Origin: Alphaproteobacteria bacterium
GTDB taxonomy: Bacteria > Pseudomonadota > Alphaproteobacteria > CAAHEQ01 > UBA3637
Reading direction: 5' to 3'
NCBI GenBank assembly: GCA_045118155.1
Contig: JBGUXS010000078.1
Location: 443-64,442, forward strand
DNA: 64,000 nucleotides
The translations under genes and the position numbers were made by a program. Below the pieces are notes generated by a model. That model saw only the letters and a list, made by a program, of their open reading frames with translations. It was not told the DNA's origin and searched no databases. Positions 2,145-57,322 of the stretch are shown piece by piece. The first letter of the stretch is position 1; each line of letters begins with the position of its first letter.

Positions 2145-2179
2145 TTTTACTAGAAAAAAGCTTTTATTACGTGTATAAT
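2145..2179 (+). promoter_or_regulatory. putative promoter for the 2199-6524 operon; -10 TATAAT at 2174-2179 preceded by TG
   Basis: gtgTATAAT lies 20 nt upstream of ATG 2199. No good -35 was found. Confidence 0.35.
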
Positions 2180-2198: not shown

Positions 2199-3341
2199 AT
2201 GCAGAAAAAACGCACCTTTATTATTGGACTTATTTGGGGGCTAATCTTCTTTTGGTGGCTGCACAATTTTTTTTACTTGAATTGGTATTTTCGGTTTTAC
2301 AGTCCCAAAGCTTGGGTTTATTTACTTCATGAATTCAAGTACGGTTGGCGGGTACGGGCCGTTTCCGATTGGATCTTTATTTTTACCCTTATTTTCGCAT
2401 TACCTCTGTTTTTCTGGGGGTGGTATCTATGCTTAAAAATCAAATGGTTGGCTCTTTTTAAATGGATAAAAAAACAATTTTTAAAACTTACCAACAAAAA
2501 ATCAACTGTTGTAAAAAAACAAATGAAGTTAGCCGCTAAAAAAAGTGTGCAAAAAGAACGCCCCCCTGCCCTTGCAACCCCCAAAGTAACTAGTCCCGAA
2601 AAGAAAATGCAAAAAATGCCATCTTCTGCCATCAAAAAAGAAGAAATCGATTTAGATTTTTCTGCTAAAGAAGAATTTTTGAAAGAAGAAAACATTCAAA
2701 CGGCACCTCCTGCCAAAGAACATCGGGCCCCGGATCCACCAAAAGGGGGACCTTCTTTCCTATTTGAAGATGATGATATCCCGCAACAAAACAATGATGT
2801 TCGGGCCGACACACTGTTGTCTGAAATAAAAATGCCAGAACGAGAACGAACACAAGAAAATATCCCAGATATTATTCACGCGCATGGCTTTAAGCCCATC
2901 ACGGCCATTGTGCATCCAGATATTTCTTTTGCGGCCGTTTCTTCAGATACCCTTTTGGTTGCTTTTGTGGATGAAGAACCAGGAGATTGGCTAGCCGATG
3001 AAGAAGATTTTGAAGGGGAAGACCCCTTGTGGTTTTCAGAAAGTTTTCATCGGGTTTCCCCAGTTTTTAAACTATTAAAAGTTGCTAAAAAAATCAGGGC
3101 TCAGTTAGAAAATCAAGGACTTTCTCATAAAGTAATTCCTTACTTAATTGAAAAAATGGGAAATATTATTAACGTAGAAGATATGCAAGAAACGTGGAAA
3201 GAACTGGGGGTCATTGTCTGCCGAACAGATGTTGGGGGGGATGAAACATTACCCACAGTAGAAGCTTCTTTCCCGCAAGCAAAAGATGTTGCAGAAGCTG
3301 CTGATTTAGATATAATAAAAGAAATTTTAAAAAAGTTATAG
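2199..3341 (+). CDS. hypothetical membrane-anchored protein: two N-terminal TM helices, a Lys-rich linker and a strongly acidic C-terminal domain; first gene of the coupling-protein operon
   Basis: TM helices FIIGLIWGLIFFWWL and WIFIFTLIFALPLFFWGWYL. KK-rich stretch from about residue 90 to 150. D/E-rich C-terminal half. Stop lies 9 nt before the next start, with the RBS AGGGGGAAAAG inside its 3' end. Confidence 0.6.
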   Translation: MQKKRTFIIGLIWGLIFFWWLHNFFYLNWYFRFYSPKAWVYLLHEFKYGWRVRAVSDWIFIFTLIFALPLFFWGWYLCLKIKWLALFKWIKKQFLKLTNKKSTVVKKQMKLAAKKSVQKERPPALATPKVTSPEKKMQKMPSSAIKKEEIDLDFSAKEEFLKEENIQTAPPAKEHRAPDPPKGGPSFLFEDDDIPQQNNDVRADTLLSEIKMPERERTQENIPDIIHAHGFKPITAIVHPDISFAAVSSDTLLVAFVDEEPGDWLADEEDFEGEDPLWFSESFHRVSPVFKLLKVAKKIRAQLENQGLSHKVIPYLIEKMGNIINVEDMQETWKELGVIVCRTDVGGDETLPTVEASFPQAKDVAEAADLDIIKEILKKL

Positions 3342-3350
3342 GGGGAAAAG

Positions 3351-5522
3351 TTGGGCGCCTCTGACGCGATGTACACCGAACGTAAAAAATATACGTACTA
3401 TGTGGCAGCTATCGTAGTACTGGCTCTTTTTGTATCTTGGATAATGCTGTTAATTACAATTCCTTTACAAGCTTTTATCCGTCAAGGGTTAGATATTGAA
3501 GCTTGGAATTACAGTGTTTCCTTTTGGACACATGCTTGGCATCCAAAAGTCATTTTTCAAGTCCTCAATAGTTGGTTTGATTCCCTAAAAACGTTAAAAA
3601 ATCCCCATTGGACTTTATATTTACCCTTTTTATCCTTTTTTATTGGCTTTATCGTTTTAGTGATAGGGCTAAAAAAGAATCCCTTTGAATACACACCAAA
3701 TATTTTTGGGAATGGACGTTTAGCCACTTATGCTGATGTCAAAAAAATGAAATTATTTACTGGGTTCTGCATCGTTTTGGGACGTTTTAAAGGCAAGTTA
3801 TTAAAAATGCCAGAAACCTTAGCGGCCTTAGTTGTTGCGCCACCGGGGACTGGTAAAACCGCTGGGGTGGTGATTCCCACCATTTTTGAATCCCCAGGAT
3901 TGAGTATTATTGTAAACGACCCTAAACCAGAATTATGTTATACCACAACCGGATATCGGGCACAACAAGGGCCTGTGTTCGTTATTAACTGGGGGGCCGA
4001 TGATGAACCAGAAAAAGGGATTTTCTTCCCTAGTTGGAATCCACTTTCTGCTTCATGCTTACCAGCACCAGGTCCCGCCAGAGATATGTACATAGACTCT
4101 ATGGTGGCTATTTTGGTAGAAGTTAATGAAAAAGATCCTCACTGGGGGAAAACTGGGCGAAATGCTATGTCTGGTTTTTTGAACTTTATCGCCAGTAAAT
4201 GTGAACGGGCACTTGCTAACGATTACTTTACTTCACGTTTAATGGACGATTTATTTGATGATGAAGACGCGGCCGTTTTAGAAACATACTATGCGGATAT
4301 GAACGATCCTGATACAGGGTCTGCTTTACAGGCATTAAAAAATGGGTCTATGACACGGGAATCTTACGTCCCTATCGGTACATGGGCGGGGCTACCTTCT
4401 GTTTGGCAAGGAAAAGAACCTTGTATTGCTATGATTTTGGACTGGCTGACGGAAATGCAAATGAAAATCAATGCCGATATTAAACGCCGTATGGATGAAG
4501 GGGATCAAATGGCGGCCATGGCAGACCCCATGCGGGATCTATTGGAAAGTGCCATCAGTGAAGCAGCCCGCTATGGCTATGCCAGACGTTCTGTCACAGA
4601 ACTCAATCAATTATCCGCCACACCGGATAAGGAACGGGGGTCTATTTTATCCACGGCCCTTTCTGGGATCAGTATTTTTAAAAACTCGGCAGTGCGTTCT
4701 AGAACTAAGTTCAGTGACATTACTTTCCGTGATTTACGTGGGATGCGTGATCCTATTACAGGGGAACAAAAACCTATTTCGGTTTATCTATCCGTTAACC
4801 AGGTAGATGCCCAAGCCTTAAATGTCATTACTGGGATTTTTGTTGAATTGATGAGCAGTTTCTTAATCGCGAACCCCCCAAATTTTGTTGGGGCAGGCGG
4901 GAAAAAGGCGGGACCATTTCCTGTTTTATTTGTGCTTGACGAGTTTCCACAAATGCCAAAATTGGATGCTGTGAAAAACGGGCCTGCCGTAGGGCGGGGA
5001 CAGAAAGTTTCTTATTTGCTCATTGGGCAGGATCTTGGACAGATTTCTGGTAAATACGGGAAAGATGATTTGGAAACAATCATTACAACAACAGCCGCTA
5101 AAGTCATTCTTTCTCAAAACAACGAACAAACCGCTGAACGTTTTACAAAAATGATTGGGACTAAAACGATTCAAGTAACAAGTTCTAGCCGAACTGAAGG
5201 GATTTCCAACCAAAATAACCCCTTTGCGGCAAACGTAAGCCGTTCCTACCAAAGCTCAAACGTGGTCCAAGTATCTGATATGATGAGCTTAGATATGCTT
5301 AAACAATACGTTTTATTCCAAGGATATCTAAACCATCCTATCTTAGCGGATGCCCCTCGTTATTACTTAGATAAAGTCATGCAAAAGAAAGCGGCCATTC
5401 CCCCTTCCCCATTTGTTCCGTATTGGATTGTAGCGCAACGGGAAGATACCGATTTAGAAACATTAAAAGCTTTGATGCAAGAGGAATTAGCAGATTTGGA
5501 TATTATCATAGAGGATGAATAA
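3351..5522 (+). CDS. virD4: type IV secretion coupling protein (VirD4/TraG/DotL family ATPase)
   Basis: Two N-terminal TM helices. Walker A VVAPPGTGKTAGVVIPT. Walker B VLFVLDEFPQMPKLD. NDPKPEL motif. Acidic C-terminal tail. TTG start at 3351; alternative ATG at 3369. Confidence 0.8.
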   Translation: MGASDAMYTERKKYTYYVAAIVVLALFVSWIMLLITIPLQAFIRQGLDIEAWNYSVSFWTHAWHPKVIFQVLNSWFDSLKTLKNPHWTLYLPFLSFFIGFIVLVIGLKKNPFEYTPNIFGNGRLATYADVKKMKLFTGFCIVLGRFKGKLLKMPETLAALVVAPPGTGKTAGVVIPTIFESPGLSIIVNDPKPELCYTTTGYRAQQGPVFVINWGADDEPEKGIFFPSWNPLSASCLPAPGPARDMYIDSMVAILVEVNEKDPHWGKTGRNAMSGFLNFIASKCERALANDYFTSRLMDDLFDDEDAAVLETYYADMNDPDTGSALQALKNGSMTRESYVPIGTWAGLPSVWQGKEPCIAMILDWLTEMQMKINADIKRRMDEGDQMAAMADPMRDLLESAISEAARYGYARRSVTELNQLSATPDKERGSILSTALSGISIFKNSAVRSRTKFSDITFRDLRGMRDPITGEQKPISVYLSVNQVDAQALNVITGIFVELMSSFLIANPPNFVGAGGKKAGPFPVLFVLDEFPQMPKLDAVKNGPAVGRGQKVSYLLIGQDLGQISGKYGKDDLETIITTTAAKVILSQNNEQTAERFTKMIGTKTIQVTSSSRTEGISNQNNPFAANVSRSYQSSNVVQVSDMMSLDMLKQYVLFQGYLNHPILADAPRYYLDKVMQKKAAIPPSPFVPYWIVAQREDTDLETLKALMQEELADLDIIIEDE

Positions 5523-6064
5523 TGACGGAAGATTTTAAGTTTGAAGATGGTCTAGGACAGGATTATTGGATTCGTGAATTTCATAAAATTCCCTTTCCAG
5601 GAATGGAATTGTTTGAAGTAACTTTTTTTAGACGTATAGAAGGGGCCTATGTGGATAAACATCAGCGCTTTAGAGAAATGGCCGTTGATTTTCTAAAAGA
5701 TTTAGGGAAAGAGGAAGAAGAACTTTATGCTTTTGAATTTTCTGAGGCCGAAGTCGCTTTGATTAAAAAAGGTCGTCTACCAGAAAATTATACTGTCCAT
5801 TTAAAATATCCTTTAGAATACGGTTGTGCATTGATCCCAGAACAATTTGTTTTGATGCCTATTGCCCCTTATTATCGGGATATTAATACTTATATCTTCA
5901 GACAACTTATAACCGATGAAGGAATTAAAAAGCCCCATCACCTTTATGTTCCCACACCAACAGGGCGTATTTATAAACCTTATTCTGGGGATGCAAGTGG
6001 CAGCGGTGGGAAAAGTAATACTTCCCAAATGGCGGCTATGTTTAACCAGGGGCGGGGGCGTTAA
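5522..6064 (+). CDS. hypothetical 180-aa protein with a Gly/Ser-rich basic C-terminus (...SGDASGSGGKSNTSQMAAMFNQGRGR), translationally coupled to virD4 (TAATG)
   Basis: Stop/start overlap with the T4CP gene. No recognisable motifs. Net-positive C-terminal tail. Confidence 0.55.
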   Translation: MTEDFKFEDGLGQDYWIREFHKIPFPGMELFEVTFFRRIEGAYVDKHQRFREMAVDFLKDLGKEEEELYAFEFSEAEVALIKKGRLPENYTVHLKYPLEYGCALIPEQFVLMPIAPYYRDINTYIFRQLITDEGIKKPHHLYVPTPTGRIYKPYSGDASGSGGKSNTSQMAAMFNQGRGR

Positions 6065-6065
6065 T

Positions 6066-6524
6066 ATGAAATTAATACATGTTGTTTTAAAAGCTATTTA
6101 TAAAGATGCCGCTGTTGTTTTTAATCCTGTGGCTTTGACTGATGTTCAAAAGGCCTCTTTTGAAATTGTAAAAAATAAAGGGATTAAAATTCCTAATGAT
6201 TATGCTGCCTTTTTAACAGAAGTTGATGGATTATCCTGGAATGGATTGTATCTTTTTTCCTTAAATGAAAAGGAACGTCAAGATGGCGCTTTTGTGCACC
6301 CTGGCATTCTACAAACATACCATAAGGGCTTAAAAAATCCGATTTTTAAAAACAGGCTTTTATTAGGATACGGCCCTGAAGAAATCATTACATATCATGC
6401 GGGAAAAAAAGAATATCAAATCCTAAGTCAATATGATTACAGAATCCTAGTACGGCTTCCCCGCTTCTTTGATGTACTGTATCACTATACCCATGCTTTA
6501 TTTGAGGATGCCCCTAAGGACTAG
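6066..6524 (+). CDS. SUKH/Smi1-Knr4-like protein (immunity-protein fold), 152 aa
   Basis: IPNDYAAFLTEVDGLSWNGLYLFSL ... LLLGYGPEEIITYH resembles the SMI1/KNR4 (SUKH-1) signature. ATG at 6066 sits 1 nt after the previous stop. The track ORF 5916-6524 is an over-extension into the previous gene. Confidence 0.5.
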   Translation: MKLIHVVLKAIYKDAAVVFNPVALTDVQKASFEIVKNKGIKIPNDYAAFLTEVDGLSWNGLYLFSLNEKERQDGAFVHPGILQTYHKGLKNPIFKNRLLLGYGPEEIITYHAGKKEYQILSQYDYRILVRLPRFFDVLYHYTHALFEDAPKD

Positions 6525-6939: not shown

Positions 6940-7680
6940 TTAGAACAAGTATCTAAGCCCCACCAAAACCGTCTGACTTTTATTTTCAACAGAAATCGGA
7001 GTTTTAGAAACTTTATCTGTCAATGAAATACGGCCTGGATCCATATAACGGTACCCTACATCTAAATCCAAATCCCGACCTAAATGTGTCGTGACACCGG
7101 CGGCTACATTCCAAGCCATTTTATACTTCCATGTTTCATGATTATAATGGTTCGTTCCTTTGTCTGATTGAACACGAATACGGGATTGGCTGACCCCGAT
7201 TCCTCCCCCAATATAAGGGCTAAAAGTATAAGAAGGGAACAAATCATAATAGGCATTCAAAAAATAAGTATTCATTTTAATATTGCTTGCCCGAACCCGT
7301 GTTCCATCATCCAACTTAAATACCGCATCCCTTTTCCCATGAGAATTATAGCTACCTTCAAGTTCCGTCCGCACATTTCCAAGCATTGTTTTGACTTGAA
7401 CCCCCAAAGCCCCGCTTAATTCCATCAGCTCATCCTTTTTTTTCTGAGATTGCCCCCCAATAGCGGGTTCAAAATCCCGTCCTTTATAGCCGATTTTTGC
7501 CTCAACATAAACCCGTTGACTAGGTTCCAAAGAATTATCTTTCAGACTCTCTTCCATATATTTGTTCTTATCATCCATCACGTAAAAATCAGTATCTCCC
7601 GCATAAGAGGCATAGTAGACACCAGCTTGTGCGTAATAACTTGACAAAACAAAAAAAGTAAAAATAAGCTTCTTCATCAT
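6940..7680 (-). CDS. outer-membrane beta-barrel protein (OMP_b-brl / Omp25-opacity-like)
   Basis: Signal peptide MMKKLIFTFFVLSSYYAQA. Alternating hydrophobic beta-strands. C-terminal ...GLRYLF with a terminal Phe. Confidence 0.7.
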   Translation of the reverse strand: MMKKLIFTFFVLSSYYAQAGVYYASYAGDTDFYVMDDKNKYMEESLKDNSLEPSQRVYVEAKIGYKGRDFEPAIGGQSQKKKDELMELSGALGVQVKTMLGNVRTELEGSYNSHGKRDAVFKLDDGTRVRASNIKMNTYFLNAYYDLFPSYTFSPYIGGGIGVSQSRIRVQSDKGTNHYNHETWKYKMAWNVAAGVTTHLGRDLDLDVGYRYMDPGRISLTDKVSKTPISVENKSQTVLVGLRYLF

Positions 7681-7698: not shown

Positions 7699-9510
7699 TT
7701 AGTCCCGTGTTACTTCGGGAAGGGTAAAATTATTTTCATCAAAAACACAGTATGTTTCAACCCGGGCGCTTAACGTATTGTCCCCCAAAGTTCCCCCTGT
7801 AAAATTCGTGGAACCCGCCCCCGTAACATAGCCAACTTCTATCCCCCATACTCTGGCAATATCCGCTTCGGTTTCTGCCTTTGCTTTATGAACATTATTA
7901 ACAGCCACAGCCACCGTATAGCGCGACACATTTGCATTTGTGACATTTGTGGTAGATCCATTTGTTACACCTTCAAAACTGTTCAAAACGTCCTTTCCGG
8001 TTGTTCGGATCGGGGTAACCACCAAAGCGGCCTTATATCCGGCCGGGCATGCTGGCGTTGTCACATTTGCCCGCAAGCAATTGTTCGTATATCCACTACA
8101 GTTCCCTAAATTAGCTTCTGTCGTTAATTCGGTAATAGATTTTGAAACATAATTCGGCAAGATATCACTTAATCTCGCCCCACCACGAGAAGCCAACTTA
8201 ACATCATTCATCACAGACGTATAAGCTGGATCTACCTGATAATGATCATACGTTTCTGATTCATTAGCAGCTTGAGCATCCACAAATTCAACGGATGAAT
8301 CAATACCTTTTGCAGACACGACTGCATTTTCTACTAACTGACCATCTGCATCATAAGCATTCAGCGTAACTTTCCCCTTGGAAGATCCATCTGTGGCTTC
8401 TTCAGCTTCGGCCTTTAAGACATCACGTCCGGCACTATCTCTGGTAATAATCTGCCCATTAGCATTGACAATAACCCGACGTTTGCCCGTGGCATCATAA
8501 ACGGTCACTGCCCGCTTGTCATTATCCACAGGATCAGTGGAAATAACGGCCGTTGAAACAAAGGCTTGAATTGTTTCCCCATCGTTCACGGGATCATCCA
8601 TAGAAACCGCTTGACGTCCTACATGCAAATCATTGCGGACATAAACATTCCCCGGGGTTCCTGCCAATCCTTCATCCGTTCCGTTTTCAAGATGTTCTGC
8701 CCCTACCCAAAATAAGGGGGCACATTCTTCCCCTGCATCCAAAATTGTATAACCGGTTGCATCTTTTCTAAAGCAATTCGTATTTCCTTCGCCAATAGAA
8801 AAATAGCTCCAAGCATGCAAGTTTTTGAAAGCGGCTTCATCTTCTAAAGAAGAAAAGAGTGCCCCTTCATCAAATCCAGTAAATGCAACATAAGACGGGC
8901 TTACCACAGGTTCCATCATCAAAGATGCCCCTTCTAATTCCCAAGTTCCCATGGTGCCTACAAAATTATCCCCTTGGACGATACCCCCATCAGCCCCAAT
9001 CAAGGCAGCGATACTAGCCGCCCGCTTTAAATTCCATGTTCCTTGCGGCAGTGCCGATGCTTTAGGTAAGATAACTCCATAAAAAGAGGTCCCAACTTTT
9101 GCCCCTTCCGTATTTTCTAAATTTTTCCCAAAAAGGTAAAAATTGTATTTTTCAGCCGTACTTGATGTCAAAACATCCCCTGTGTACGTGTTATAGGTCA
9201 CTGGTAAGTATGTTGCCACATTTTTCCACAACGTGTTATATGAACAATTGGAAGTTTCTGTTCCAGACAATGCACAAACCCCACCACCGGCTGTGGCTAA
9301 TTCTTCAAGTTGCCTATGTTGCGTTTGGATAAAAGAGGAAAAAGCTTCCTTCATCGTACGCATTTCGGTCGCTACATTAACATTGGCTAGTTCCCGATTA
9401 CGTTGTGCCACTTGCCTATACAAAACAGGTCCCAACACCGCCAAGATCCCTAAGACGGCAATAGCTTCTATCATAATAGACCCAGATTGGGTTTTTACAG
9501 CTTTTTTCAT
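7699..9510 (-). CDS. large (603 aa) prepilin-type (class III signal peptide) protein, TadG/pseudopilin/minor-pilin-like putative adhesin
   Basis: N-terminus MKKAVKTQSG|SIMIEAIAVLGILAVLG: basic leader ending in Gly, Glu at +5, then a hydrophobic helix. The remainder is Thr/Asn/Gly/Asp-rich and predicted extracellular. Confidence 0.65.
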   Translation of the reverse strand: MKKAVKTQSGSIMIEAIAVLGILAVLGPVLYRQVAQRNRELANVNVATEMRTMKEAFSSFIQTQHRQLEELATAGGGVCALSGTETSNCSYNTLWKNVATYLPVTYNTYTGDVLTSSTAEKYNFYLFGKNLENTEGAKVGTSFYGVILPKASALPQGTWNLKRAASIAALIGADGGIVQGDNFVGTMGTWELEGASLMMEPVVSPSYVAFTGFDEGALFSSLEDEAAFKNLHAWSYFSIGEGNTNCFRKDATGYTILDAGEECAPLFWVGAEHLENGTDEGLAGTPGNVYVRNDLHVGRQAVSMDDPVNDGETIQAFVSTAVISTDPVDNDKRAVTVYDATGKRRVIVNANGQIITRDSAGRDVLKAEAEEATDGSSKGKVTLNAYDADGQLVENAVVSAKGIDSSVEFVDAQAANESETYDHYQVDPAYTSVMNDVKLASRGGARLSDILPNYVSKSITELTTEANLGNCSGYTNNCLRANVTTPACPAGYKAALVVTPIRTTGKDVLNSFEGVTNGSTTNVTNANVSRYTVAVAVNNVHKAKAETEADIARVWGIEVGYVTGAGSTNFTGGTLGDNTLSARVETYCVFDENNFTLPEVTRD

Positions 9511-14668: not shown

Positions 14669-15059
14669 GGGCCACCAATGAACGTACCCGTTCTACCATA
14701 GAAAAAAAACCATTCCGACGCGTGGGGGATAAATGATCTTCTAGACCTAAATCCTTAAAAATCCGTTCTATATCCAATTCCCGAATAAAAGCAGCTGTTT
14801 GCCCATTAATTAGGGAAAGTAAAATAGCCTCTAACCCCCGTACAATAAAGGCATCGCTATCGGCAACAAAAAAGAACTTATCCCCTTTTTGCTGAACAGT
14901 AATCCACACTTGTGATTGGCATCCTTGGACCTTATGGGCTTCTGTTTTATCTTCTTCTGGCATCGGGGGTAAACTCTGTCCTAATTCAATTAGGTATTGG
15001 TATTTTTCTTCCCAATCCGTAAATAAAGAAAAATTATCAATTAATTCCTGTTCTGTCAT
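14661..15059 (-). CDS. sufE: SufE-like cysteine desulfuration (sulfur acceptor) protein
   Basis: VQGCQSQVWI active-site Cys motif. 132 aa. Confidence 0.8.
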   Translation of the reverse strand: MTEQELIDNFSLFTDWEEKYQYLIELGQSLPPMPEEDKTEAHKVQGCQSQVWITVQQKGDKFFFVADSDAFIVRGLEAILLSLINGQTAAFIRELDIERIFKDLGLEDHLSPTRRNGFFSMVERVRSLVAHA

Positions 15060-16462
15060 TCAATGTTTTTTAATCCTTCTAGTGTTAATTTTACCTTTAT
15101 TATATCAACACTGCGATTTTTTTCATCAAAAATACGCTTATCCTCTTGTAAAAAAGGACGTAAGTCTTTTAATAATCCAGCATCTTCAGTAGCTTGACAC
15201 GCTGAATTTTGTAAAAATTCTTTTTCTTGAGGGGTTGTTTGAACCGCCACATTTTGTAAATAGGTTTGCATCAAAGTACATTGTTCTTCATCAATCGGTT
15301 TGGCTGGGGGAGAAATAGCATCAAAATTCCGAATAAGAAATTCAATATCTCCAACGGGTTTTTCCTTTTCAATCTGTCCTGTAAAATGCACATCTATAAC
15401 CGCTTGTACACTTTCCAAACTTCCTTTAACATCCAAATCAGCCCCTTTTAGCAGCCCCCAAGAAAAATCTTTAGAAAGCAATTGTTCTACTAATATTTCA
15501 CGATCAAACTTTTTGGCTTTGATAACTAATTTTCCCTTTTCTGGGATAAACCCTTTGGTCGGGACATTCCCTATACACGCGAATGTTAGGTTAATTTCAG
15601 CTTCCTCCCCCTTAAATTCTACTTGCCCTTCTACCTGCGTTAAAATAATCTTTCTGGGGTAAACGGGAAATACTAAATCCGCCTGTGGTATTTCAAATTC
15701 AATTTTTCCTGTATCCGCCAATAACCATGCATTATGTAAAATAGGGGCTAATCCCTGAAACCGTGCTTTTTCCGTTAAAGAAGCCACCGTCCCTTGCACT
15801 TCTTTCCCCGTAAATGTCAACCCCAAAAGGGAGGCTTTTTGTTCAATAACGGGAACATGCCCCAAAAAAGAAAACATATATTTGCCGTTTGCTTCATCCA
15901 CTTTCAATTGCCATTCGGGGCGCGTCAGGTGTACATGGCTAGCACTCCACCGATCTTCGGCAATCAAATCCCAATACGGGTGCCATTTAAATTCATTTTG
16001 CCACTTTTCAACATAGAAAAAATTGGGTTCAAATACCGCGGTTGCAAAACCTTCTAGTTGTTCTTTTGGGGGAAAGTGTCCCCGATATAACGTCGTCCCT
16101 TCTAATTGCCCATCTGGGGTCAATAATACCCCTTGTGTAGGGAAAGTCATTTCATCCGGTGTTTCTTTAAGTGGCATCCAAACGGTCAGAACTTTTTTCT
16201 TCAAGTCTAAATCATTCTTCACAGATGCTTCTGGCAATATTAAACTTGCTTGATCGGCTCGTTGTTGCAAAACAGCCCCCGAAATCCCCAATGCCTTTAA
16301 CTTCGCCCTTAGGGCCTTAGCCAAAGTATCATGATCCGGTCGTGTCAACACAGTGGATGGGGTTACGTAAGACATAGCATTAGGGAAAAAACGCGTTAAC
16401 ACCGCGCCTTGCAAAGCAACTGCCCCTACAAGAGCCAGACGTCCCAATAATTTTGCTAACAT
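15056..16462 (-). CDS. hypothetical secreted/periplasmic protein, 468 aa
   Basis: N-terminal signal-like MLAKLLGRLALVGAVALQGAV. No recognised motifs. Overlaps the sufE start by 4 nt. Confidence 0.55.
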   Translation of the reverse strand: MLAKLLGRLALVGAVALQGAVLTRFFPNAMSYVTPSTVLTRPDHDTLAKALRAKLKALGISGAVLQQRADQASLILPEASVKNDLDLKKKVLTVWMPLKETPDEMTFPTQGVLLTPDGQLEGTTLYRGHFPPKEQLEGFATAVFEPNFFYVEKWQNEFKWHPYWDLIAEDRWSASHVHLTRPEWQLKVDEANGKYMFSFLGHVPVIEQKASLLGLTFTGKEVQGTVASLTEKARFQGLAPILHNAWLLADTGKIEFEIPQADLVFPVYPRKIILTQVEGQVEFKGEEAEINLTFACIGNVPTKGFIPEKGKLVIKAKKFDREILVEQLLSKDFSWGLLKGADLDVKGSLESVQAVIDVHFTGQIEKEKPVGDIEFLIRNFDAISPPAKPIDEEQCTLMQTYLQNVAVQTTPQEKEFLQNSACQATEDAGLLKDLRPFLQEDKRIFDEKNRSVDIIKVKLTLEGLKNIE

Positions 16463-27459: not shown

Positions 27460-27758
27460 TGCCACCATTTTTAAGCCCTGATGAAGATTCGTGTCTTTTA
27501 CACATTTTATTGGTTCCTAATGCTAAAGAAAATAAGATTTATGGTCTTTTTAATGAACGATTAAAACTTTATATTTCTGCCCCAGCTGTGGACGGAAAAG
27601 CGAATAAAGCTTTAATTAAATACCTGGCTGATCTCTTTAACCTAAAAAAAAATCAGATTTCCTTGATACAAGGGGAAAGATCCCATCAAAAAACAGTACG
27701 ACTAGATGCCCCTATTGACCACATCTGTACTTGTTTAAGTCAACATATTTCCGTGTAA
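27456..27758 (+). CDS. DUF167 (YggU) family protein
   Basis: LKLYISAPAVDGKANKALIKYLADLF... Confidence 0.7.
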   Translation: MMPPFLSPDEDSCLLHILLVPNAKENKIYGLFNERLKLYISAPAVDGKANKALIKYLADLFNLKKNQISLIQGERSHQKTVRLDAPIDHICTCLSQHISV

Positions 27759-28805
27759 AATACGTGTAATCTCGCTTCCTTGCATCAAAGAAAAACCTAA
27801 GGCTTGGGCTTGTTGTATTTCTTGAGGGGTTTGAATATCAAACAAGATAATTTTTTCTTTAGGATAATTCAAAGTAGCAGCCCATTTCATCTGTTGACTA
27901 TTAATCTTTAGGTAATGCATCGGGATTTTATCCCATGCTAAATAGGATATTTCCTCCGGAATGCGTAATAAAAAGAGGGATTGTTGATAACAAGGTATTT
28001 TTTGAATACTTTGCCATAAATCCCGTTCCCAAAGAAAATCTGATAAACTTATTTCATAAGAAATACCTTGATGTTGATACAATTGGTGCATTTCCTGATA
28101 AACGGGTTGGGTTAAAAGATAAGGACTCGCAGAAAAAACTCCTCCTTGTGTTTTGGGCAATTCCTTTTTTAAAATTTTTGTATACAGCGCATTCTTAAAG
28201 GCCCTTTTCAAATATGTATCAGAATCCAATATCACCTTTGGAAATAGAACTTGACGGACATCAATATCTTTACAAAAAACACTGGTAAATACAGGAACCA
28301 TCTCGGTTAAATCATGAACCTGACAAATGCATTGATGCCGTGTTAAATGTGAAACATCCGCTGTTTTTAGCTCTGATAAAATATGTGTGAGAGTTGGGGT
28401 ATCCAAGGGCAATGAAGGAATTTTTTGAAGCACTTTTAAATCAGAAAAATCTGCTGTTGGGGTTAGCTCTTGATGATTAATTTTATGGATCAAAGCATTA
28501 AAATCTGTGATTAAATTAAAAAATGATAATTTATGTTCTTGGAAAAAGGATTTTTCCAGCCCCTTTAATTTCAAGGAAAGCAACATCATATCCTGTAATT
28601 TATTATGGGCAAAAAAGGCAACGCTATCCCCTTCGCTTAAAAAGAACAATTTCGTTTGATATGTCTGTTCAAAAGAACTCAAAAAATGCAAAAGAACCTT
28701 TTTTTTCTCATCTTCTTTAGGTAAAGGAATATAAAGAGCATGCCCTTTAAATGTTCTTTTTTCAAGATATTTGAGATAGTCAAAAACACTATTATACCGC
28801 ATCAT
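27735..28805 (-). CDS. hypothetical protein with a degenerate EAL-like C-terminal domain
   Basis: C-terminal ...YLKINSQQM...KIILFDIQTPQEIQQAQALGFSLMQG mirrors the EAL end (KID...EGVE...GCD..QG) but lacks the catalytic residues. Confidence 0.5.
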   Translation of the reverse strand: MMRYNSVFDYLKYLEKRTFKGHALYIPLPKEDEKKKVLLHFLSSFEQTYQTKLFFLSEGDSVAFFAHNKLQDMMLLSLKLKGLEKSFFQEHKLSFFNLITDFNALIHKINHQELTPTADFSDLKVLQKIPSLPLDTPTLTHILSELKTADVSHLTRHQCICQVHDLTEMVPVFTSVFCKDIDVRQVLFPKVILDSDTYLKRAFKNALYTKILKKELPKTQGGVFSASPYLLTQPVYQEMHQLYQHQGISYEISLSDFLWERDLWQSIQKIPCYQQSLFLLRIPEEISYLAWDKIPMHYLKINSQQMKWAATLNYPKEKIILFDIQTPQEIQQAQALGFSLMQGSEITRILHGNMLT

Positions 28806-29874
28806 ATCCCCTTAAATGTTGCACACACACGCATTGTGATGCTTGATGCGGGATCGCCCCCATTTGCATACACGTTTGTAAAGCACAATCTCCCCCATAT
28901 GGACACGTTTTTTTTCGAGAAGCCGCATGAATCAAATCAATAAAATCACCTTGAAAAAAGGTATATGGGGAAGACAGAATTTGAGTTAATTTTTCTTGCG
29001 TATCCACTCCTGTTACAAAAACAGGAACATGATTGATTGATTGTGTTAAACAAACTTCTACGGGAAGAAGTAAAAAATCAGCTTCTAATAAATCAAAACG
29101 ATAAAAGGCCGTTTCTGCAGTAATGCCCCCAATACCTAACCGATACTGTTTTCCTGGACGAGTTAGGGCTTCCTTATACAGATTTTTATTTAACAAGACT
29201 TCTGCAATATCTAAAATAATCCAAACTGGGTCATTATTTTCAATCCAAGCACTTTCCAACGTTCCTTGCACCATCAAAGGCAATGTCGTTTGTTTAAACA
29301 GCTCTTTATTTGGGTGTTGCAATAATTGTTTCTGTATTTTCTGAACTAACCACATTGGAAGCTGATCCATATTGTTTTTTAAGGTCCATGTATATCCCCA
29401 CAGAGAGTTGCTCCCCTTTTGATAAATTACCCGCCTAAACCAACTATTTTTTTCGGGAATATCTTTTAAAAAAGCCTCATAATCAACCTCTTGATTCGTT
29501 TGCTTTTTAGCTATCTGAATCAGGGACAAAACCCCCATCAAATCCTGTGGTAAATGGAACAAGCGTACATTTTCTTCTTTTTTTCCTGTTTGAATTTGAA
29601 AAAATGTTTGAATTTGGCGCATCACATCCACAACTTGATGTTCATCAAGATCAACCCCTATTAATAAACGATCTTGTTGTTCAAATGTAAAAAGCCGACA
29701 ATATTCATACGCTAATAACGGTTCTAATAAATGTTCTATGACGTGCATCAACCTTTCGGCCCCTGGCAGACCTAATAATTGACTTGTCCCTATCCAAAGG
29801 ACAACCGACGGTGTTTCTAAAGCAGCGACACGCTTTATTGTTTCTAAGGCCAGTTGTTCTTGTGTCTCATACAT
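28792..29874 (-). CDS. hypothetical protein with a degenerate EAL-like domain and a Cys-rich C-terminal tail
   Basis: YRLGIGGITAETAFYRFDLLEADFLLLPVEV...VPVFVTGVDTQEKL...FQGDF parallels the EAL DDFGTG...KIDRSF...EGVET...QGY layout. Tail TCPYGGDCALQTCMQMG...QCVCVQH. Confidence 0.5.
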   Translation of the reverse strand: MYETQEQLALETIKRVAALETPSVVLWIGTSQLLGLPGAERLMHVIEHLLEPLLAYEYCRLFTFEQQDRLLIGVDLDEHQVVDVMRQIQTFFQIQTGKKEENVRLFHLPQDLMGVLSLIQIAKKQTNQEVDYEAFLKDIPEKNSWFRRVIYQKGSNSLWGYTWTLKNNMDQLPMWLVQKIQKQLLQHPNKELFKQTTLPLMVQGTLESAWIENNDPVWIILDIAEVLLNKNLYKEALTRPGKQYRLGIGGITAETAFYRFDLLEADFLLLPVEVCLTQSINHVPVFVTGVDTQEKLTQILSSPYTFFQGDFIDLIHAASRKKTCPYGGDCALQTCMQMGAIPHQASQCVCVQHLRGYDAV

Positions 29875-29980: not shown

Positions 29981-31951
29981 ATGCATTACTTAACAGGGGA
30001 AGAAGTTTCTGTCACATCCTTAAAAACAATAGCCCAAGAATTTGGTTTTATGTTGTGGCCGCACCCCGATGATCCTTTCTTATTGCATAAAACACCCTAT
30101 CAAAGTTTTCCAGAAATGCTTTCTGTCCTTACAGATCATATTACAGAAAAAAAACTTAATTCCCTCTTCACTTTCCCTGTTTCTTTCATCTTAGATGCGA
30201 ATGCACAATCTGAATCCTTACATAACTTCTTTAAATATCAAGCCCGTAACCAATTGGATAAAACCATCGGTGTCTTGCTAACTTGCCCCGTTATTTACGC
30301 CTGTGATGTTGCGCAAATTTTTACCGAAGCCTTACATCAACGATTACACTTTCCTAGCACACGTTACAGTAATATTCATATGGCTATTCATGAAGCGCTC
30401 GTCAATGGTTTAGTGCATGGAAATCTAAAACTACCTAGTTCTTTACGGCAATCAGCTCGTGATTTCGTTGATTACGCCCGCATTGTTAATGAACGCTTAT
30501 TAGACCCTGCCTATGCTAATAAATCCATCAGTATTTGGGCTACTTGGAATACCTCTAGATTGGAAATTAAGATTCGGGACGAAGGGGCTGGATATACGGT
30601 TTTACCCCCCCATAAAAAACATGTGGCAGAAAAACGTTCTGGACGGGGGCTTTATCTAATTGCCGGAACTGCTGATTCCTGCACAATTGATGATTTTGGG
30701 CGAGAAATCACATTATCTTTTATTCTAAATAATCTAAACAACGAACAAGATATCGGGGTTTCTGAAAATGCGGCTTTACTGCATGATCCTGTAACCGATT
30801 TTTCGGATTGTCGTATTTTAATCATTGAAGATAACCCCAGTAATCAAATCTTGGTTTCACAACTTTTAAACGTGGTTGGAATTGGTCATATTGAAACAGC
30901 TCAAGATGGGGTTGAAGGCCTTGAAAAAGCATTCAGTATGAAACCAGACTTAGTCATTTTGGACATCACTATGCCCCGAATGAATGGATATGAAGTACTT
31001 CACCAACTCAGAACAAATCAAGATACGGCCTCTATCCCGGTTTTAATTCAAACGGCTTCTGATACACGGGCAGCACGGGATAAAACTTTTAGTGCGGGGG
31101 CAACAGACTTTATCACAAAGCCATTAAATCCTTTGGAATTTTTCTCTCGGATACGGGTACACTTAGAAAATAGATTACTTGTAAAACATCTTGAAACGAA
31201 ACTCGCTCAAATCAATGAAGAACTAGAACTTGCCCAAAAAATGCAAGAAAGTTTATTACCCCCCACGGAAGCACTTCAAGATATCAGCCAACGTTATCAT
31301 CTAGATATTTCTTATACGTTCTTACCTTCTTCCCATTTAGGGGGGGATTTCTGGCAAATTTTTCCATTGGCTAAAGATAAGGTCGCTTTTTATATTTGCG
31401 ATTTTTCGGGACATGGGGTAAGTGCTGCCATGAATACGTTCCGATTACACACCTTAATCGGGCAAATGGATATGACGGCATTGAAAAAGCCTTCCGAATT
31501 TCTTTTTATGCTTAATAATTCTTTGGTCAACTTGTTGCCCAGGGGACAATTTGCTACTTTCTTCTTTGGTATTTTAAACAAGCGACAAGGAACATTAACA
31601 TATGCTGGGGCCAGTTCGCCCTTCCCTATTTTGGTTAAGGACAACAAACCCTCTTTCTTAGATACTTCCGGGATGCCTTTGGGAATTTTAAAGGACGTTA
31701 CTTATAAAGATAAAAAGGTACCATTTTCCAAAGAAATGGGCATTTTACTATACAGTGACTCTTTCACTGAACAACAAAATAAAGAAGGAAATCGCCTTGA
31801 TTATGATGGTTTTATGAAAATGACTCAGACGTGTTTCTCAGAAAAAACATCTCAACAAGTCATTGCCCAAATCATGCAAAAATTTCATGAATTTTCTGAC
31901 ACCCCTAGTACCGATGATATTACGGCTGTCTATTTGAAAGGCCTCTTATGA
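29981..31951 (+). CDS. multidomain signalling protein: RsbW-like HATPase_c_2 kinase domain, receiver (REC) domain and PP2C/SpoIIE phosphatase
   Basis: N-box IHEALVNGLVHGN, G-boxes IRDEGAGY and GRGLYLIAG. REC domain ILIIEDNP...DLVILDITMP...ITKP. PP2C domain GGDFW...ICDFSGHGVSAAM...DDITAV. Confidence 0.75.
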   Translation: MHYLTGEEVSVTSLKTIAQEFGFMLWPHPDDPFLLHKTPYQSFPEMLSVLTDHITEKKLNSLFTFPVSFILDANAQSESLHNFFKYQARNQLDKTIGVLLTCPVIYACDVAQIFTEALHQRLHFPSTRYSNIHMAIHEALVNGLVHGNLKLPSSLRQSARDFVDYARIVNERLLDPAYANKSISIWATWNTSRLEIKIRDEGAGYTVLPPHKKHVAEKRSGRGLYLIAGTADSCTIDDFGREITLSFILNNLNNEQDIGVSENAALLHDPVTDFSDCRILIIEDNPSNQILVSQLLNVVGIGHIETAQDGVEGLEKAFSMKPDLVILDITMPRMNGYEVLHQLRTNQDTASIPVLIQTASDTRAARDKTFSAGATDFITKPLNPLEFFSRIRVHLENRLLVKHLETKLAQINEELELAQKMQESLLPPTEALQDISQRYHLDISYTFLPSSHLGGDFWQIFPLAKDKVAFYICDFSGHGVSAAMNTFRLHTLIGQMDMTALKKPSEFLFMLNNSLVNLLPRGQFATFFFGILNKRQGTLTYAGASSPFPILVKDNKPSFLDTSGMPLGILKDVTYKDKKVPFSKEMGILLYSDSFTEQQNKEGNRLDYDGFMKMTQTCFSEKTSQQVIAQIMQKFHEFSDTPSTDDITAVYLKGLL

Positions 31952-53441: not shown

Positions 53442-53517
53442 GTTTTTTTCATAAAAGCATTTTCTGCCTTTACTTTTCATCTCTTTTTGATTATGCTTGT
53501 TTCTACAAGGGGGTAAT

Positions 53518-53805
53518 ATGCGGGAACCTATTTTAAAAGCGGTCAGTATGCCGGCGCGTATTTTATGGGCGCCGTCGGTTCCGGCGTTGTTAAACATGGT
53601 TTGTCAATTACCTTTCATGTTGTTCTATGCGGGACAAGGGGGCAACCCTTTGCTATTCATGGGAACTATCATCGGGGTTCATGCCTTAATTGCTCTTTAT
53701 GCCGCGAAAGAACCTCATTTATCTAATATGTTCAAAGCCCAAGGTCCTTTCTTTAAGAAAAGTTCACAAATGTATACCTCATCAGGAAGAAAATACGCCC
53801 CATGA
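53518..53805 (+). CDS. virB3: type IV secretion system protein VirB3 (TrbD-like)
   Basis: Two TM helices. ILKAVSMPARILWAPSVPALLNMV...LLFMGTIIGVHALIALYAAKEPHL matches the VirB3 family. RBS AAGGGGG. ATGA overlap with virB4. Confidence 0.75.
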   Translation: MREPILKAVSMPARILWAPSVPALLNMVCQLPFMLFYAGQGGNPLLFMGTIIGVHALIALYAAKEPHLSNMFKAQGPFFKKSSQMYTSSGRKYAP

Positions 53806-56237
53806 ATCAAACAGATGTTTTCGCCCTTATTTTACAAAATGCTTCCTCTACGGGGTTACTTATTGCCTTGTTAGGAGTATTAGCACTTGTTTTTGTCATG
53901 GTTGTATTTGTGACCTCCTTAGGAAATATGTTACTTCCCAAACCAAAAGAAACCCTTGTTTCTGATTTTCTTCCTTTTTCAAGGCTAGACCCAGATGGTG
54001 CCACCATTTACATGCGTAATGGTACTTTGGCTCGTGTTTTTGAATTAACAGGAACGGATACCACTTTAGCAAGTGATATTGAACGTAAAGCCTTAATGGA
54101 AAAACGGCAACAATGGATTGATTCACTAAGTGAATTAGAAATTATTTGCAGGGTTATTACGATTCGTGAAAAAATTCCTTTAGCCGAAGAAACACTACAT
54201 CCAGATAATCCTTTGCTCAATAAAGTGTCAGAACTTTGGTTGAACAGTTTACACCGTATTTTCAGAAACAAACATTACCTAATTCTTTCCGTTAATGATC
54301 GTAAGGATGCCATTAATGATTTAATTCAGGCAACAAATGCGACTCTTTCTATTTTAGATGTTTATCATCCTATTCTTATTTCTGAAAAAACCCCAGATAA
54401 ACATCAAGACAAAAGCCCCTTTTGGGTTTTTTCACAACTTGTCAGCCCCGTATCAAACCCCAAACCCATTGTAGGCTTTGAAAAAGGGGAAGAACTTAAT
54501 TCCTTTTTAACGTCTGACTATATCCACTTCACAAAAGATGAAGGGATTATCCGTTTCTTTTCTGGGGATAGGGAAAAATTAGCCATTTGTATCGGTATTC
54601 GTAAGCCTGGGGATTTCATGGATGAACAAATGGTTGCCCGTATTTTAGGAATTGATTGTGAAGTTGTTATTACACACAATATCCATGCTATTCCAAAAGC
54701 AAAAGGAAACCTGTTAATGATTCAACAACGCCGTATGGCTTACTTAACAAGTTTTTCTGAAAGTGTACGTTCCCAATATAATACCGCCATGCAATTAATG
54801 GATCCTTCTGATATTAATTCACAAACCCTTAATGAATATTCTATGTCTATTATGGTTTATGGGGAATCTAAGGAAGAACTTGTTTTTGGACAACAGGAAG
54901 TTGAAAAAATATGCCGACTTTACGGGGTGACCCCTGTGCGAGAAGGTTGGATTACTCAAGCTGTTTTCTTTTCTCAAATTCCCTCTTATGAAGTATATCC
55001 ACGTACATACTTGTATTTATCGCGGGTAGTGGCGTGTTCCATTTGCATGGATAAAACAACTGAAGGCCGGCAAAAATCTGATTGGGGGCCTGTGCCTATT
55101 TCTTACTTCCGGACTATTACGGGGACCCCTTACGCTTTCCAATTTCATGTAACAGAAGAACCCTATGCTGTGGCACATACAGCCCTTATTGGTCCAACGG
55201 GACAAGGGAAAACAACCTTATTTTCATTTTTAGCAGGCCAATCTTCCCGTATTCCAGATTTACGGACTTATTTCTTTGACCGTAACAATGGGGCCAAAGT
55301 TTTTGCTTTATTACAAGGGGCTCCTTATGTGCGGTTTGATGGGGGGGACAATGCTGTTGCCTTAAATCCTTTCTTTATGCCAGATTCCCCTGAAAACAGG
55401 GCATTTTTACGATCTTGGTTACGCTCTATTACTGGCTGTACAGATGCTTTTTCCGAAGAAGAAATTGCCCGAGCCGTTACAACAGCTTATGACTATTTAA
55501 AACCAGAAGAACGTCTTTTGAAGAACTTGTATAAAAGCTCTTTTTCCTTAAACGGAGATATGCGCCGTGAACTAAAACGTTGGGTCAGTGATGATCAATA
55601 TGGTCGGATCTTTAATGCCGAAGAAGATAAATTAGATATTGATAACCGCTATACTGGTTTTGATTTTACGCATATTTTCCAAGATGGGACGTTGGCTCCT
55701 GCTGTCATCAGTTATATCATGTACCGCATTCATGAATTAGCTAGTTTAAAAGGGACCCCCTCGTTAGTGATGATTGATGAAACGGCCCCTATGTTAGAAC
55801 ATCCTATGTTCCGAGACAATTTCATTGTAGGCCTTCGGGAAGGACGAAAGAAACGACAAGCATTCTTATGTGCTTTCCAGCAACCTCGCTTTTTAGATGA
55901 AAACGGTTTAGGGGATGTGATTCGTGGCCAATGTCAAACCATTATTTTCTTTAGAAATTTACAGGCAACCCCCGCGGATTATGAATCTTGGAATTTAACC
56001 CCAAGTGAACTAAACTTTATTCTAGGAAAAGAATTTATTGATCATAAATACGCCATCCTTGTCAAACGGCCCGCTGTTAATGAATCTGTTATCTTAGATA
56101 TTAATTTGGGGGGATTAGGTCCCTACTTAAAAATTTATTCTTCTGGGAATAAAAATGTGGCCTTAGTTGAACGTCTTAGTCATGAACTAAAATATGCTAA
56201 AGATATCCTACAACAATATCTACAGTTATCTGATTAG
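53802..56237 (+). CDS. virB4: type IV secretion system ATPase VirB4 (TrbE-like), 811 aa
   Basis: Walker A LIGPTGQGKTT. Walker B SLVMIDETAPML. N-terminal TM helix. CagE/TrbE/VirB4 architecture. Confidence 0.88.
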   Translation: MNQTDVFALILQNASSTGLLIALLGVLALVFVMVVFVTSLGNMLLPKPKETLVSDFLPFSRLDPDGATIYMRNGTLARVFELTGTDTTLASDIERKALMEKRQQWIDSLSELEIICRVITIREKIPLAEETLHPDNPLLNKVSELWLNSLHRIFRNKHYLILSVNDRKDAINDLIQATNATLSILDVYHPILISEKTPDKHQDKSPFWVFSQLVSPVSNPKPIVGFEKGEELNSFLTSDYIHFTKDEGIIRFFSGDREKLAICIGIRKPGDFMDEQMVARILGIDCEVVITHNIHAIPKAKGNLLMIQQRRMAYLTSFSESVRSQYNTAMQLMDPSDINSQTLNEYSMSIMVYGESKEELVFGQQEVEKICRLYGVTPVREGWITQAVFFSQIPSYEVYPRTYLYLSRVVACSICMDKTTEGRQKSDWGPVPISYFRTITGTPYAFQFHVTEEPYAVAHTALIGPTGQGKTTLFSFLAGQSSRIPDLRTYFFDRNNGAKVFALLQGAPYVRFDGGDNAVALNPFFMPDSPENRAFLRSWLRSITGCTDAFSEEEIARAVTTAYDYLKPEERLLKNLYKSSFSLNGDMRRELKRWVSDDQYGRIFNAEEDKLDIDNRYTGFDFTHIFQDGTLAPAVISYIMYRIHELASLKGTPSLVMIDETAPMLEHPMFRDNFIVGLREGRKKRQAFLCAFQQPRFLDENGLGDVIRGQCQTIIFFRNLQATPADYESWNLTPSELNFILGKEFIDHKYAILVKRPAVNESVILDINLGGLGPYLKIYSSGNKNVALVERLSHELKYAKDILQQYLQLSD

Positions 56238-57226: not shown

Positions 57227-57322
57227 GAAAAAAAGTAAAAAAGCGTTTTTTTTAAATTTTAATCACATTTTATGCTTGCTTTTCCCACAAAAAAAAGGTT
57301 GAATGATGCGCAGAGGAGAATT

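Follow-up and report, generated by a model that had tools for sequence, protein, structure and literature searches.

We describe here a block of four genes, designated A, B, C and D, which lies on the forward strand near the beginning of a 64,000-nucleotide stretch (the window) of contig JBGUXS010000078.1 from an alphaproteobacterial genome assembly (GCA_045118155.1), and which is built around a type IV coupling protein (T4CP) of the VirD4/TraG family. Gene A (2199-3341) codes for a membrane-anchored protein of 380 residues from an ATG start, and gene B (3351-5522) for the divergent T4CP itself, a protein of 723 residues that is read from a TTG start and ends in an acidic C-terminal tail. They are followed by gene C (5522-6064), whose 180-residue product combines an HNH (beta-beta-alpha-metal) domain with a disordered basic tail (residues 156-180), and gene D (6066-6524), which codes for a 152-residue protein of the probable SUKH (SMI1/KNR4, YrhA-like) immunity type. 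The start of D is placed at 6066; the mechanical list of open reading frames (ORFs) begins an ORF at 5916. Read directly from the sequence, the A/B junction is a 9-nucleotide gap containing GGGGGAAAAG, B and C overlap in a TAATG, and C and D are separated by a single nucleotide. Independent gene calls recovered the same four genes in four further assemblies of this species, at 98.7-99% nucleotide identity, and the tight coupling of four genes claimed by a first-pass annotation of this DNA thus stands, gaps and overlap included. A candidate sigma-70-like promoter, TAGAAA-17-TATAAT with 10 of 12 consensus matches, lies just 5' of A (2151-2179, forward strand); as a consensus match it is weak evidence, such sites being rarer in the region than in its shuffles.

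The assignment of B is the anchor for all that follows. Its product matches the Pfam families T4SS-DNA_transf (1.2e-54, 186.4 bits), TraG-D_C (7.9e-23, 81.2 bits) and TrwB_AAD_bind (2.8e-18, 66.4 bits), as against gathering cut-offs of 20-22, while remaining under every NCBIfam equivalog cut-off (the best scores being 146 bits versus 250 for the CD1115 family and 128 versus 728 for PRK13897). In an alignment of 18 sequences the Walker A (APPGTGKT) and Walker B (VLFVLDEFP) motifs are invariant or nearly so, and two N-terminal hydrophobic spans cover residues 13-44 and 86-109; the family, the Walker motifs and the two spans that the first-pass annotation gave for this ATPase are all confirmed by the Pfam matches and the sequence. 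By these matches B is a divergent VirD4/TraG coupling protein. No sequence in the PDB was matched by it, either as a single sequence or as a profile. The last 30 residues of B carry a net charge of -9, and the C-terminal tails of the T4CPs of its relatives are likewise all acidic (-1 to -22). Among 72,556 plasmids the closest T4CP is that of Erythrobacter aureus, a VirD4 that is encoded in a virB operon and is also the closest one from a cultured organism; its identity to B is 31%, with 97% of the query covered.

When a single genome from each species was scanned, 357 relatives of B came to light; the best 80 (59-74% identity) served for a comparison of their loci with 10-kb flanks, by tblastn and ORF clustering. 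These 80 come almost entirely from metagenome-assembled genomes (MAGs) titled uncultured Alphaproteobacteria or Rhodospirillales, from the guts of humans, ruminants, rabbits and horses, and they may belong to the GTDB order RF32. While B is present in all 80 loci, A stands immediately upstream of it in 77, C immediately downstream of it in 75, and D behind C in 74. The genes that flank the block in the window do not recur with any regularity among the 80 loci; the next commonest neighbors are a DnaJ-like gene (37/80) and a ribbon-helix-helix gene (28/80), followed by FtsE, AnmK and L28. Since A-B-C-D is kept in 74-80 of the 80 loci against differing flanks, it is a block far beyond chance, and the co-occurrence in relatives that the first-pass annotation had named as a check is decisively upheld. 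Moreover, the divergence of A, C and D parallels that of B, which points to vertical co-inheritance of the four. Even in a distant clade, where A is only 28% identical, A again lies directly upstream of a T4CP of 741 residues.

Several variants of the block were seen alongside these counts. One subclade (L051-L075 in our numbering of the loci; e.g., L056:7700-9870) has two tandem paralogues of A. In two distant lineages a small ORF adjoins A or the T4CP: one of 159 residues (L091:9461-9940) and one of 122 residues (L096:7216-7584), the former resembling the Trp-rich N-terminal membrane module of A alone. In two divergent lineages (L090:2-1619 and L094:5189-7440) an A-like gene, a C-like gene with a degenerate HNH motif and a D-like gene occur with no T4CP between A and C; hence, the association of A, C and D is independent of the gene order around virD4.

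The first-pass annotation had also noted that the cassette seemed to lack a secretion channel. Pfam scans of essentially all ORFs of at least 120 residues in the window bear out its statement that relaxase and channel genes are absent from the 64 kb apart from virB3-virB4: they revealed no other gene of a type IV secretion system (T4SS) and no relaxase, except for the VirB4 ATPase gene (53802-56237, forward strand; TIGR00929, 7.5e-112) and a virB3-like small membrane ORF of 102 residues (53497-53805, forward strand), which overlaps the virB4 start and is assigned by position and size, with no Pfam match. This unit has only housekeeping neighbors, gatCAB on one side and acpS/rpoZ/dnaE on the other. 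Otherwise the window holds, by Pfam, housekeeping genes: lgt, rbfA, rpsI/rplM, pnp, truB, an AcrB-type efflux system, RNase E, nrdD, lpxA/lpxD/fabZ/bamA, mreBCD/PBP2/rodA, gatCAB and dnaE. The 8 kb upstream of the window, read from a near-identical contig, are also housekeeping. A tra locus is absent from the window and from these 8 kb, and a relaxase is found neither there nor among the recurrent neighbors across the 80 loci.

The genomes of the relatives change how this layout is to be read. A virB3-like gene and virB4 also stand by themselves amid different housekeeping neighbors in L085 (9605-12445) and L086 (9699-12439), in both of which an ORF of 97-127 residues precedes virB4; scattered T4SS genes are thus the rule in this lineage. 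VirB4 identity is 66-95% among the 120 best relatives listed, and across the lineage VirB4 is about as well conserved as VirD4. When the VirB proteins of the Erythrobacter plasmid were used as tblastn queries against the loci of relatives, further channel genes emerged, namely homologs of virB7, virB8, virB9, virB10 and virB11, none of which is in the window: L063 has a virB7-like lipoprotein gene, two virB8 genes, virB9 and the start of a giant virB10 (L063:1-890), 6-10 kb upstream of the cassette. In L017, virB10-virB11 end 1.3 kb upstream of A, and the only intervening genes are the DnaJ-like and ribbon-helix-helix ones, an arrangement that looks like an interrupted virB10-virB11-virD4 series with A inserted before virD4. 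L060 has a VirB8 match and L076 a VirB4 match. Finally, L096 presents on one strand an A-like gene (415 residues), the 122-residue ORF with a transmembrane segment, a T4CP gene (724 residues), C-like and D-like genes, and then virB7-like, virB8, virB9 and giant virB10 genes. The giant VirB10 is at least 2203 residues long in L017 (L017:4-6615) and occurs also at L096:13952-17017; long N-terminal degenerate repeats of a 'DGN..G' type precede its TrbI/VirB10 domain.

Given that the cassette abuts virB7-10 in L096 and has virB genes nearby in other relatives, it is best viewed as the coupling module of a dispersed VirB/VirD4 system, and the loci of the relatives, in which VirB7-11 are seen, firmly support the prediction of a scattered but complete VirB/VirD4 T4SS. 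The first-pass annotation had proposed an orphan coupling-protein cassette devoid of a dedicated channel and equipped with a DotM/IcmP-like membrane adaptor. Such a proposal could draw on the restriction of channel genes to virB3-like/virB4 within the 64 kb and on the gene order, a transmembrane-anchored partner followed by the T4CP as in icmP-icmO. However, the lineage does have channel genes, close to the cassette in L017, L063 and L060 and continuous with it in L096, so the proposal is already contradicted, and we regard it as scarcely credible; with T4SS genes scattered, as they are in the Rickettsiales, the absence of channel genes within 64 kb is no evidence for an orphan component.

Two known kinds of system offer the closest comparisons for the layout. 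The first are VirB/VirD4 systems of alphaproteobacterial plasmids, with Erythrobacter aureus YH-07 (NZ_CP031358) and Microvirga pMVF16-3 encoding the closest annotated plasmid T4CPs (31-33% identity; 97% of the B query covered in Erythrobacter and 75% in Microvirga). The plasmid VirB4, B8, B9, B10 and B11 proteins are homologous to those of the window and its relatives (30-41% identity; about 40% for the window's VirB4 and that of the Erythrobacter plasmid). In these plasmids the genes make up one operon, which in Erythrobacter is complete (virB4-...-virB8-virB9-virB10-virB11-virD4), whereas here the genes are chromosomal and scattered, three more partners accompany VirD4, and VirB10 is giant; A, C and D are absent from the virD4 loci of both plasmids. 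The second is the rvh system of the Rickettsiales, which is likewise a chromosomal, vertically inherited, lineage-wide VirB/D4 system with its genes split into islands. Among those islands are one with virB3-virB4 and one with virB8-9-10-11-D4. The likeness is one of layout: the NCBIfam scores obtained here are far below the rvh-type equivalog cut-offs, and the scattering is more extreme. To our knowledge RvhD4 has no neighbors of the A, C or D type. A role in killing other microbes has been suggested for basal members of the rvh group (PMC11077975).

A, the partner encoded upstream of the coupling protein, has transmembrane helices at about residues 7-25 and 52-79; next come a juxtamembrane segment that is basic and a linker (about 105-205) that is disordered, and the protein ends in a C-terminal domain (206-380). 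In its AlphaFold model (pLDDT 81.8) there are helices at 2-29, 36-47, 55-80 and 83-99, disorder at 105-205 and a confident alpha/beta region at 205-380. The first-pass annotation had called it membrane-anchored and acidic. The anchor holds, but the acidity is confined to the C-terminal domain (net charge -16, isoelectric point 4.6); the whole protein is near neutral (isoelectric point 6.7), its membrane part and linker being strongly basic. By the positive-inside rule, both the N-terminus and the C-terminal domain would lie in the cytoplasm. A has no Pfam or NCBIfam family and no match in the 72,556 plasmids, and its 501 homologs are almost all unnamed, one of them being called a NERD-domain protein by one source. 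The NERD profile (PF08378) is nonetheless matched by 12 of 64 members of the A family, the window protein itself not being among them. The predicted fold of A resembles that of restriction-endonuclease-like nucleases; the scores of the fold searches were modest and a Foldseek search against the PDB was not significant. On these models, the domain at 206-380 is an acidic domain of the predicted NERD/PD-(D/E)xK restriction-endonuclease-like fold.

This domain departs from NERD proper in several ways. With the motif mapped onto the structure by eye, the canonical D...(D/E)xK triad is poorly kept and is replaced by D/S...DxE in place of D...ExK: the first D is found in 73% of the family and is S243 in the window protein, D258 is invariant, and the position of the K is occupied by E (75%) or Q. 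An invariant block at 263-288, DWLA[DE]EE-x-F-N-x-E-x-PLWFSE-xx-HR-x-SP, is an insert specific to the A family, and a second invariant block lies at 321-333 (GNIINAE[DE]M...W). An alpha/beta nuclease-like domain with NERD matches in its family rules A out as a DotM/IcmP analogue, and with this the likeness to icmP(dotM)-icmO(dotL) drawn by the first-pass annotation falls. Indeed, neither sequence nor fold homology to DotM/IcmP, IcmS, IcmW or LvgA was found for A, C or D. What is shared with the Legionella DotL(IcmO)-DotM(IcmP)-IcmSW-LvgA complex is the order of a transmembrane partner and then the T4CP, and the idea that small accessory proteins sit on the T4CP. The proteins themselves (NERD-like A, HNH-type C, SUKH-type D) are unrelated to those of Legionella, and the channel is of the type IVA (VirB) and not of the Dot/Icm kind.

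Downstream of the coupling protein, C is blank as far as direct family searches go: it has no Pfam family at E <= 1, none of 40 homologs has one at E <= 0.1, no NCBIfam family is recovered, and sequence or profile comparisons of A, B and C with solved structures gave nothing useful. Fold searches matched it, with modest scores, to HNH nucleases. A profile search with the C domain over 1.84 billion representative proteins then retrieved 528 clusters, and outside the gut clade the C-type domain sits at the extreme C-terminus of larger proteins with RHS repeats, PT-HINT, PT-TG, MuF_C or Mu-portal regions. The toxin-type regions matched by the C profile also match Pfam HNH, and the E-values of the C core versus the toxin C-termini that were checked are mostly between 1e-13 and 1e-18. 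Copies on plasmids are annotated as HNH endonuclease, type VII secretion system LXG polymorphic toxin or pre-toxin TG protein. In the gut clade, 74-75 of 75 relatives keep the HNH motif (H93/N108/H118/H122), all four residues being present in 74 of the 75 species. These relationships firmly support the classification of C as an HNH toxin-type protein, with an active site that is predicted to be degenerate in the window species, as detailed below.

D fits the same picture from the other side. It matches the NCBIfam YrhA family at 7.3e-13 (48.7 bits, below the cut-off of 55), and Pfam searches with 41 of its homologs returned only SMI1_KNR4, SUKH_5 and SUKH_6, all below the gathering score. No signal peptide or transmembrane helix was predicted, and the protein would thus be cytoplasmic. 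This concordance points to D as a probable SUKH (SMI1/KNR4) immunity-type protein. Comparable pairings occur elsewhere: an RHS toxin ending in a C-type HNH domain is followed by an SMI1_KNR4 (PF09346) gene, and in L088 a standalone C-like gene is followed by a D-like ORF. HNH domains of polymorphic toxins have been described before in the company of SUKH (SMI1/KNR4) immunity proteins (Zhang et al. 2012, PMC3482391). Taken together, the homology of C to toxin domains, the SUKH type of D and the RHS-HNH/SMI1_KNR4 pairing indicate that C and D are a toxin-immunity pair by descent. Of the two roles that the first-pass annotation had considered for these small downstream genes, that of cargo suits C, whereas that of generic adaptors does not agree with an HNH toxin-type protein next to a SUKH immunity-type one.

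The C proteins of the gut clade have, in addition, an extra 35-40 residues at their C-terminus with the pattern GSGGK[NG]K[QH]DRS...AG[FY]S...[IL]AxKxMPGR. This tail is disordered in the predicted model and its net charge is mostly +3 to +5, being +2 in the window protein and about 0 in one subclade. It is found only in standalone forms; the polymorphic-toxin forms end 3-10 residues past the core. At the other end C is variable: its N-terminal extension, acidic and of low complexity, measures between 0 and about 290 residues. We also considered whether the tail is a signal shared with other proteins, but dropped the idea, for when 6004 ORFs from the window and the loci were searched with a hidden Markov model (HMM) of the tail, all matches belonged to the C family. 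Directly upstream of the A-like gene of L094 there is a gene (L094:3807-5171) for a 454-residue protein lacking a Pfam family, the end of which (...YYNFGNGR) recalls the ...GR with which tails of the C family close; this protein escaped the tail HMM, and any connection with a shared signal at the C-terminus would be speculation.

Based on these features, we consider it about an even call that the cassette is a lineage-specific coupling module that presents a captured toxin-immunity pair to VirD4, with C as a dedicated substrate and likely DNase effector. Under this proposal, the system would be chromosomal and vertically inherited, distributed in small gene groups among the housekeeping genes of uncultured gut Alphaproteobacteria, with its VirD4 (B) presumably co-transcribed with the three lineage-specific partners A, C and D. 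C would go back to an HNH domain with which polymorphic toxins attack DNA, and D to the SUKH protein that gives immunity to it; in the cytoplasm of the producer, D would keep C inactive. The basic tail of C might then dock on VirD4, whose acidic tail is of complementary charge, upon which VirD4 would strip D from C and feed C to the VirB channel for use as a DNase effector against neighboring cells. A could be anchored beside VirD4 in the inner membrane, where its acidic domain on a tether of about 100 residues may assist in receiving the C-D complex or in gating its passage.

A precedent for such a use of VirD4 is provided by the X-T4SS of Xanthomonadales, in which VirD4-dependent toxic effectors are reported to be encoded next to immunity genes and to be recognized via a C-terminal region (PMC11253643; PMC6536674); TfdA of S. 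maltophilia is described as a nuclease effector with an immunity protein in a bacteria-killing T4SS (PMC11253643). The extension of killing to the present system is an analogy. It differs from the X-T4SS in that a single conserved pair is fixed in the virD4 operon, while the X-T4SS pairs are many, dispersed and variable, and Pfam detected no XVIPCD in C, on the assumption that the release used includes a model of that domain. The comparison with polymorphic toxins is similarly mixed: the C core is homologous to the C-terminal toxin domains of RHS, PT-HINT, PT-TG, MuF and LXG proteins, and D-type SUKH genes follow such toxins, but C is a standalone protein devoid of a trafficking domain, with a unique basic tail, inheritance linked to a T4CP and frequent loss of the catalytic residues.

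This last feature and the mode of inheritance speak against C being a catalytic effector throughout. In the window species only H93 of the motif is kept (N108Q, H118Y, H122N), identically in four independent assemblies. The changes in the window C lie at residues 102-122 and are concentrated in the metal-binding loop; the rest of the fold and the tail are still there, as are most of the other conserved positions. Among the 76 aligned C proteins, the window species is alone in having lost three motif residues, and it also has the replacements G102C, D105I and F106P. A census of the top 150 representative clusters, 143 of which could be scored at all four positions, gives this a wider frame: where the HNH domain forms the extreme C-terminus of a larger, toxin-type protein, the motif is intact in 58 clusters and degenerate in 1, as opposed to 22 intact and 16 degenerate among the standalone forms with a basic tail, i.e., a loss in 16 of 38. 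The degenerate C still precedes D in the T4SS cluster of L096, and in L090 and L094 it has the A-like gene before it and D after it. The repeated loss of the HNH motif in tail-bearing forms implies that C and D may also, or instead, act structurally, and with the site dead in the window species, any role of C there would have to proceed without HNH catalysis; the pair could in that species be non-catalytic only, functioning in docking or regulation or as disarmed cargo.

Hence, an alternative that has to be entertained is that C and D, along with A, belong permanently to the coupling complex and are never secreted, their task being that of an adaptor, a chaperone or a gate toward other substrates, with the nuclease as a dispensable relic; in function they would be likened to IcmS/IcmW/LvgA plus DotM, to which they are unrelated by descent. 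The strict one-to-one vertical co-inheritance of C and D with VirD4 agrees with this, as do the persistence of the A-C-D trio as a unit, the concentration of the substitutions in the metal-binding loop of the window C, and the preservation of fold, tail and D where the HNH motif has been lost, the window species and L096 included. We nevertheless judge it rather unlikely, because the presence of all four catalytic positions in 74 of 75 species of the main gut clade implies selection on catalysis there, and because a fixed subunit has no obvious need of a disordered basic tail or of an immunity-type partner. The more general notion that the HNH/SUKH pair and the NERD-like A have been domesticated into the coupling complex, be it as a catalysis-free gate or adaptor or for relaxase-independent DNA processing on behalf of a chromosomal T4SS, we take to be tentatively possible, if still on the doubtful side.

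The second of these roles merits consideration of its own. It would have the T4SS move DNA, with A and/or C (as an HNH nickase) replacing an HUH relaxase at the T4CP and D regulating C. The fold of MOB_C relaxases is itself restriction-endonuclease-like, and in CloDF13 a relaxase of that kind comes with a T4CP of its own. The flanking of a DNA-translocase-type ATPase by two nuclease-fold proteins, the lack of a relaxase in the window and in any inspected flank, and the conservation of the HNH catalytic residues in most species are all in keeping with it. Yet the nearest relatives of C are polymorphic-toxin domains paired with SUKH immunity genes and not relaxases, the nuclease site of C has been lost repeatedly, and the PD-(D/E)xK positions of A are unconserved (position 243 being D in 73% and S in the window, and the K being E or Q). 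Moreover, A has no counterpart on the plasmids searched, and neither an oriT nor a mobile-element context is present at the cassette, the flanks of which are housekeeping genes. We therefore deem this role improbable.

The combination of two nuclease folds with a toxin-immunity pair might also suggest a T4SS-independent defense or addiction module, in which a T4CP-like ATPase and nucleases are directed against invading DNA. The sole PADLOC match, however, was a weak one (25 bits) of the ATPase to mads_8, A, C and D having none, and the idea of a defense system was set aside on this account. The core, lineage-wide, single-copy and co-diverging distribution of the cassette is furthermore at odds with the patchiness of defense islands, and in L096 the cassette is continuous with virB7-10, so we give such a module next to no weight. 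A toxin-antitoxin addiction pair that stabilizes the operon is also unlikely, since the co-divergence is deep and both genes have persisted through repeated losses of the catalytic residues.

Some other genes of the window are recorded here as observations in their own right. On the reverse strand, 1.2 kb from the cassette, a gene (7699-9510) adjoining an Adr-like/outer-membrane-protein beta-barrel gene (6940-7680) codes for a protein of 603 residues whose N-terminus resembles that of type IV pilins (…QSGS/IMIEAIAVLGILAVLG, Glu at +5); the protein has no Pfam family and a weak ComGG-like NCBIfam match. An unusual fusion of 656 residues (29981-31951, forward strand) unites an HATPase_c_2 domain of the anti-sigma-factor kinase-like type, a response-regulator receiver and a SpoIIE/PP2C phosphatase. 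ORFs lacking a Pfam family include one of 468 residues (15056-16462, reverse strand), an overlapping pair of 356 and 360 residues (27735-29874, reverse strand) and a lipoprotein-like pair of 263 and 110 residues just downstream of the virB4 region (57272-58392, forward strand); unrecognized T4SS or envelope components could be among these.

The first-pass annotation had also taken the cassette to be undescribed, and in this it was right: neither A nor C belongs to a Pfam or NCBIfam family, A is not matched on plasmids, and we found no description in the literature of a T4CP operon with partners of the A, C and D types. A T4CP operon with these partners is new, while the type IVA system with its coupling protein is itself already known. 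The accessory set is unrelated to DotM, IcmSW or the relaxosome, and it brings with it a candidate short C-terminal recognition tail, the charge of which is complementary to that of the T4CP tail. The series of intact and dead HNH domains could, in turn, illustrate the capture, and perhaps the domestication, of a toxin-immunity pair by a secretion machine. For genome scans, the locus counsels caution in lineages with scattered T4SS genes. As for the bacteria themselves, these uncultured gut Alphaproteobacteria recur in MAGs from humans, ruminants, rabbits and horses; a lineage-wide, vertically inherited T4SS that is locked to toxin-type, immunity-type and tethered nuclease-like partners suggests that contact-dependent killing or DNA handling may be one of their core traits.

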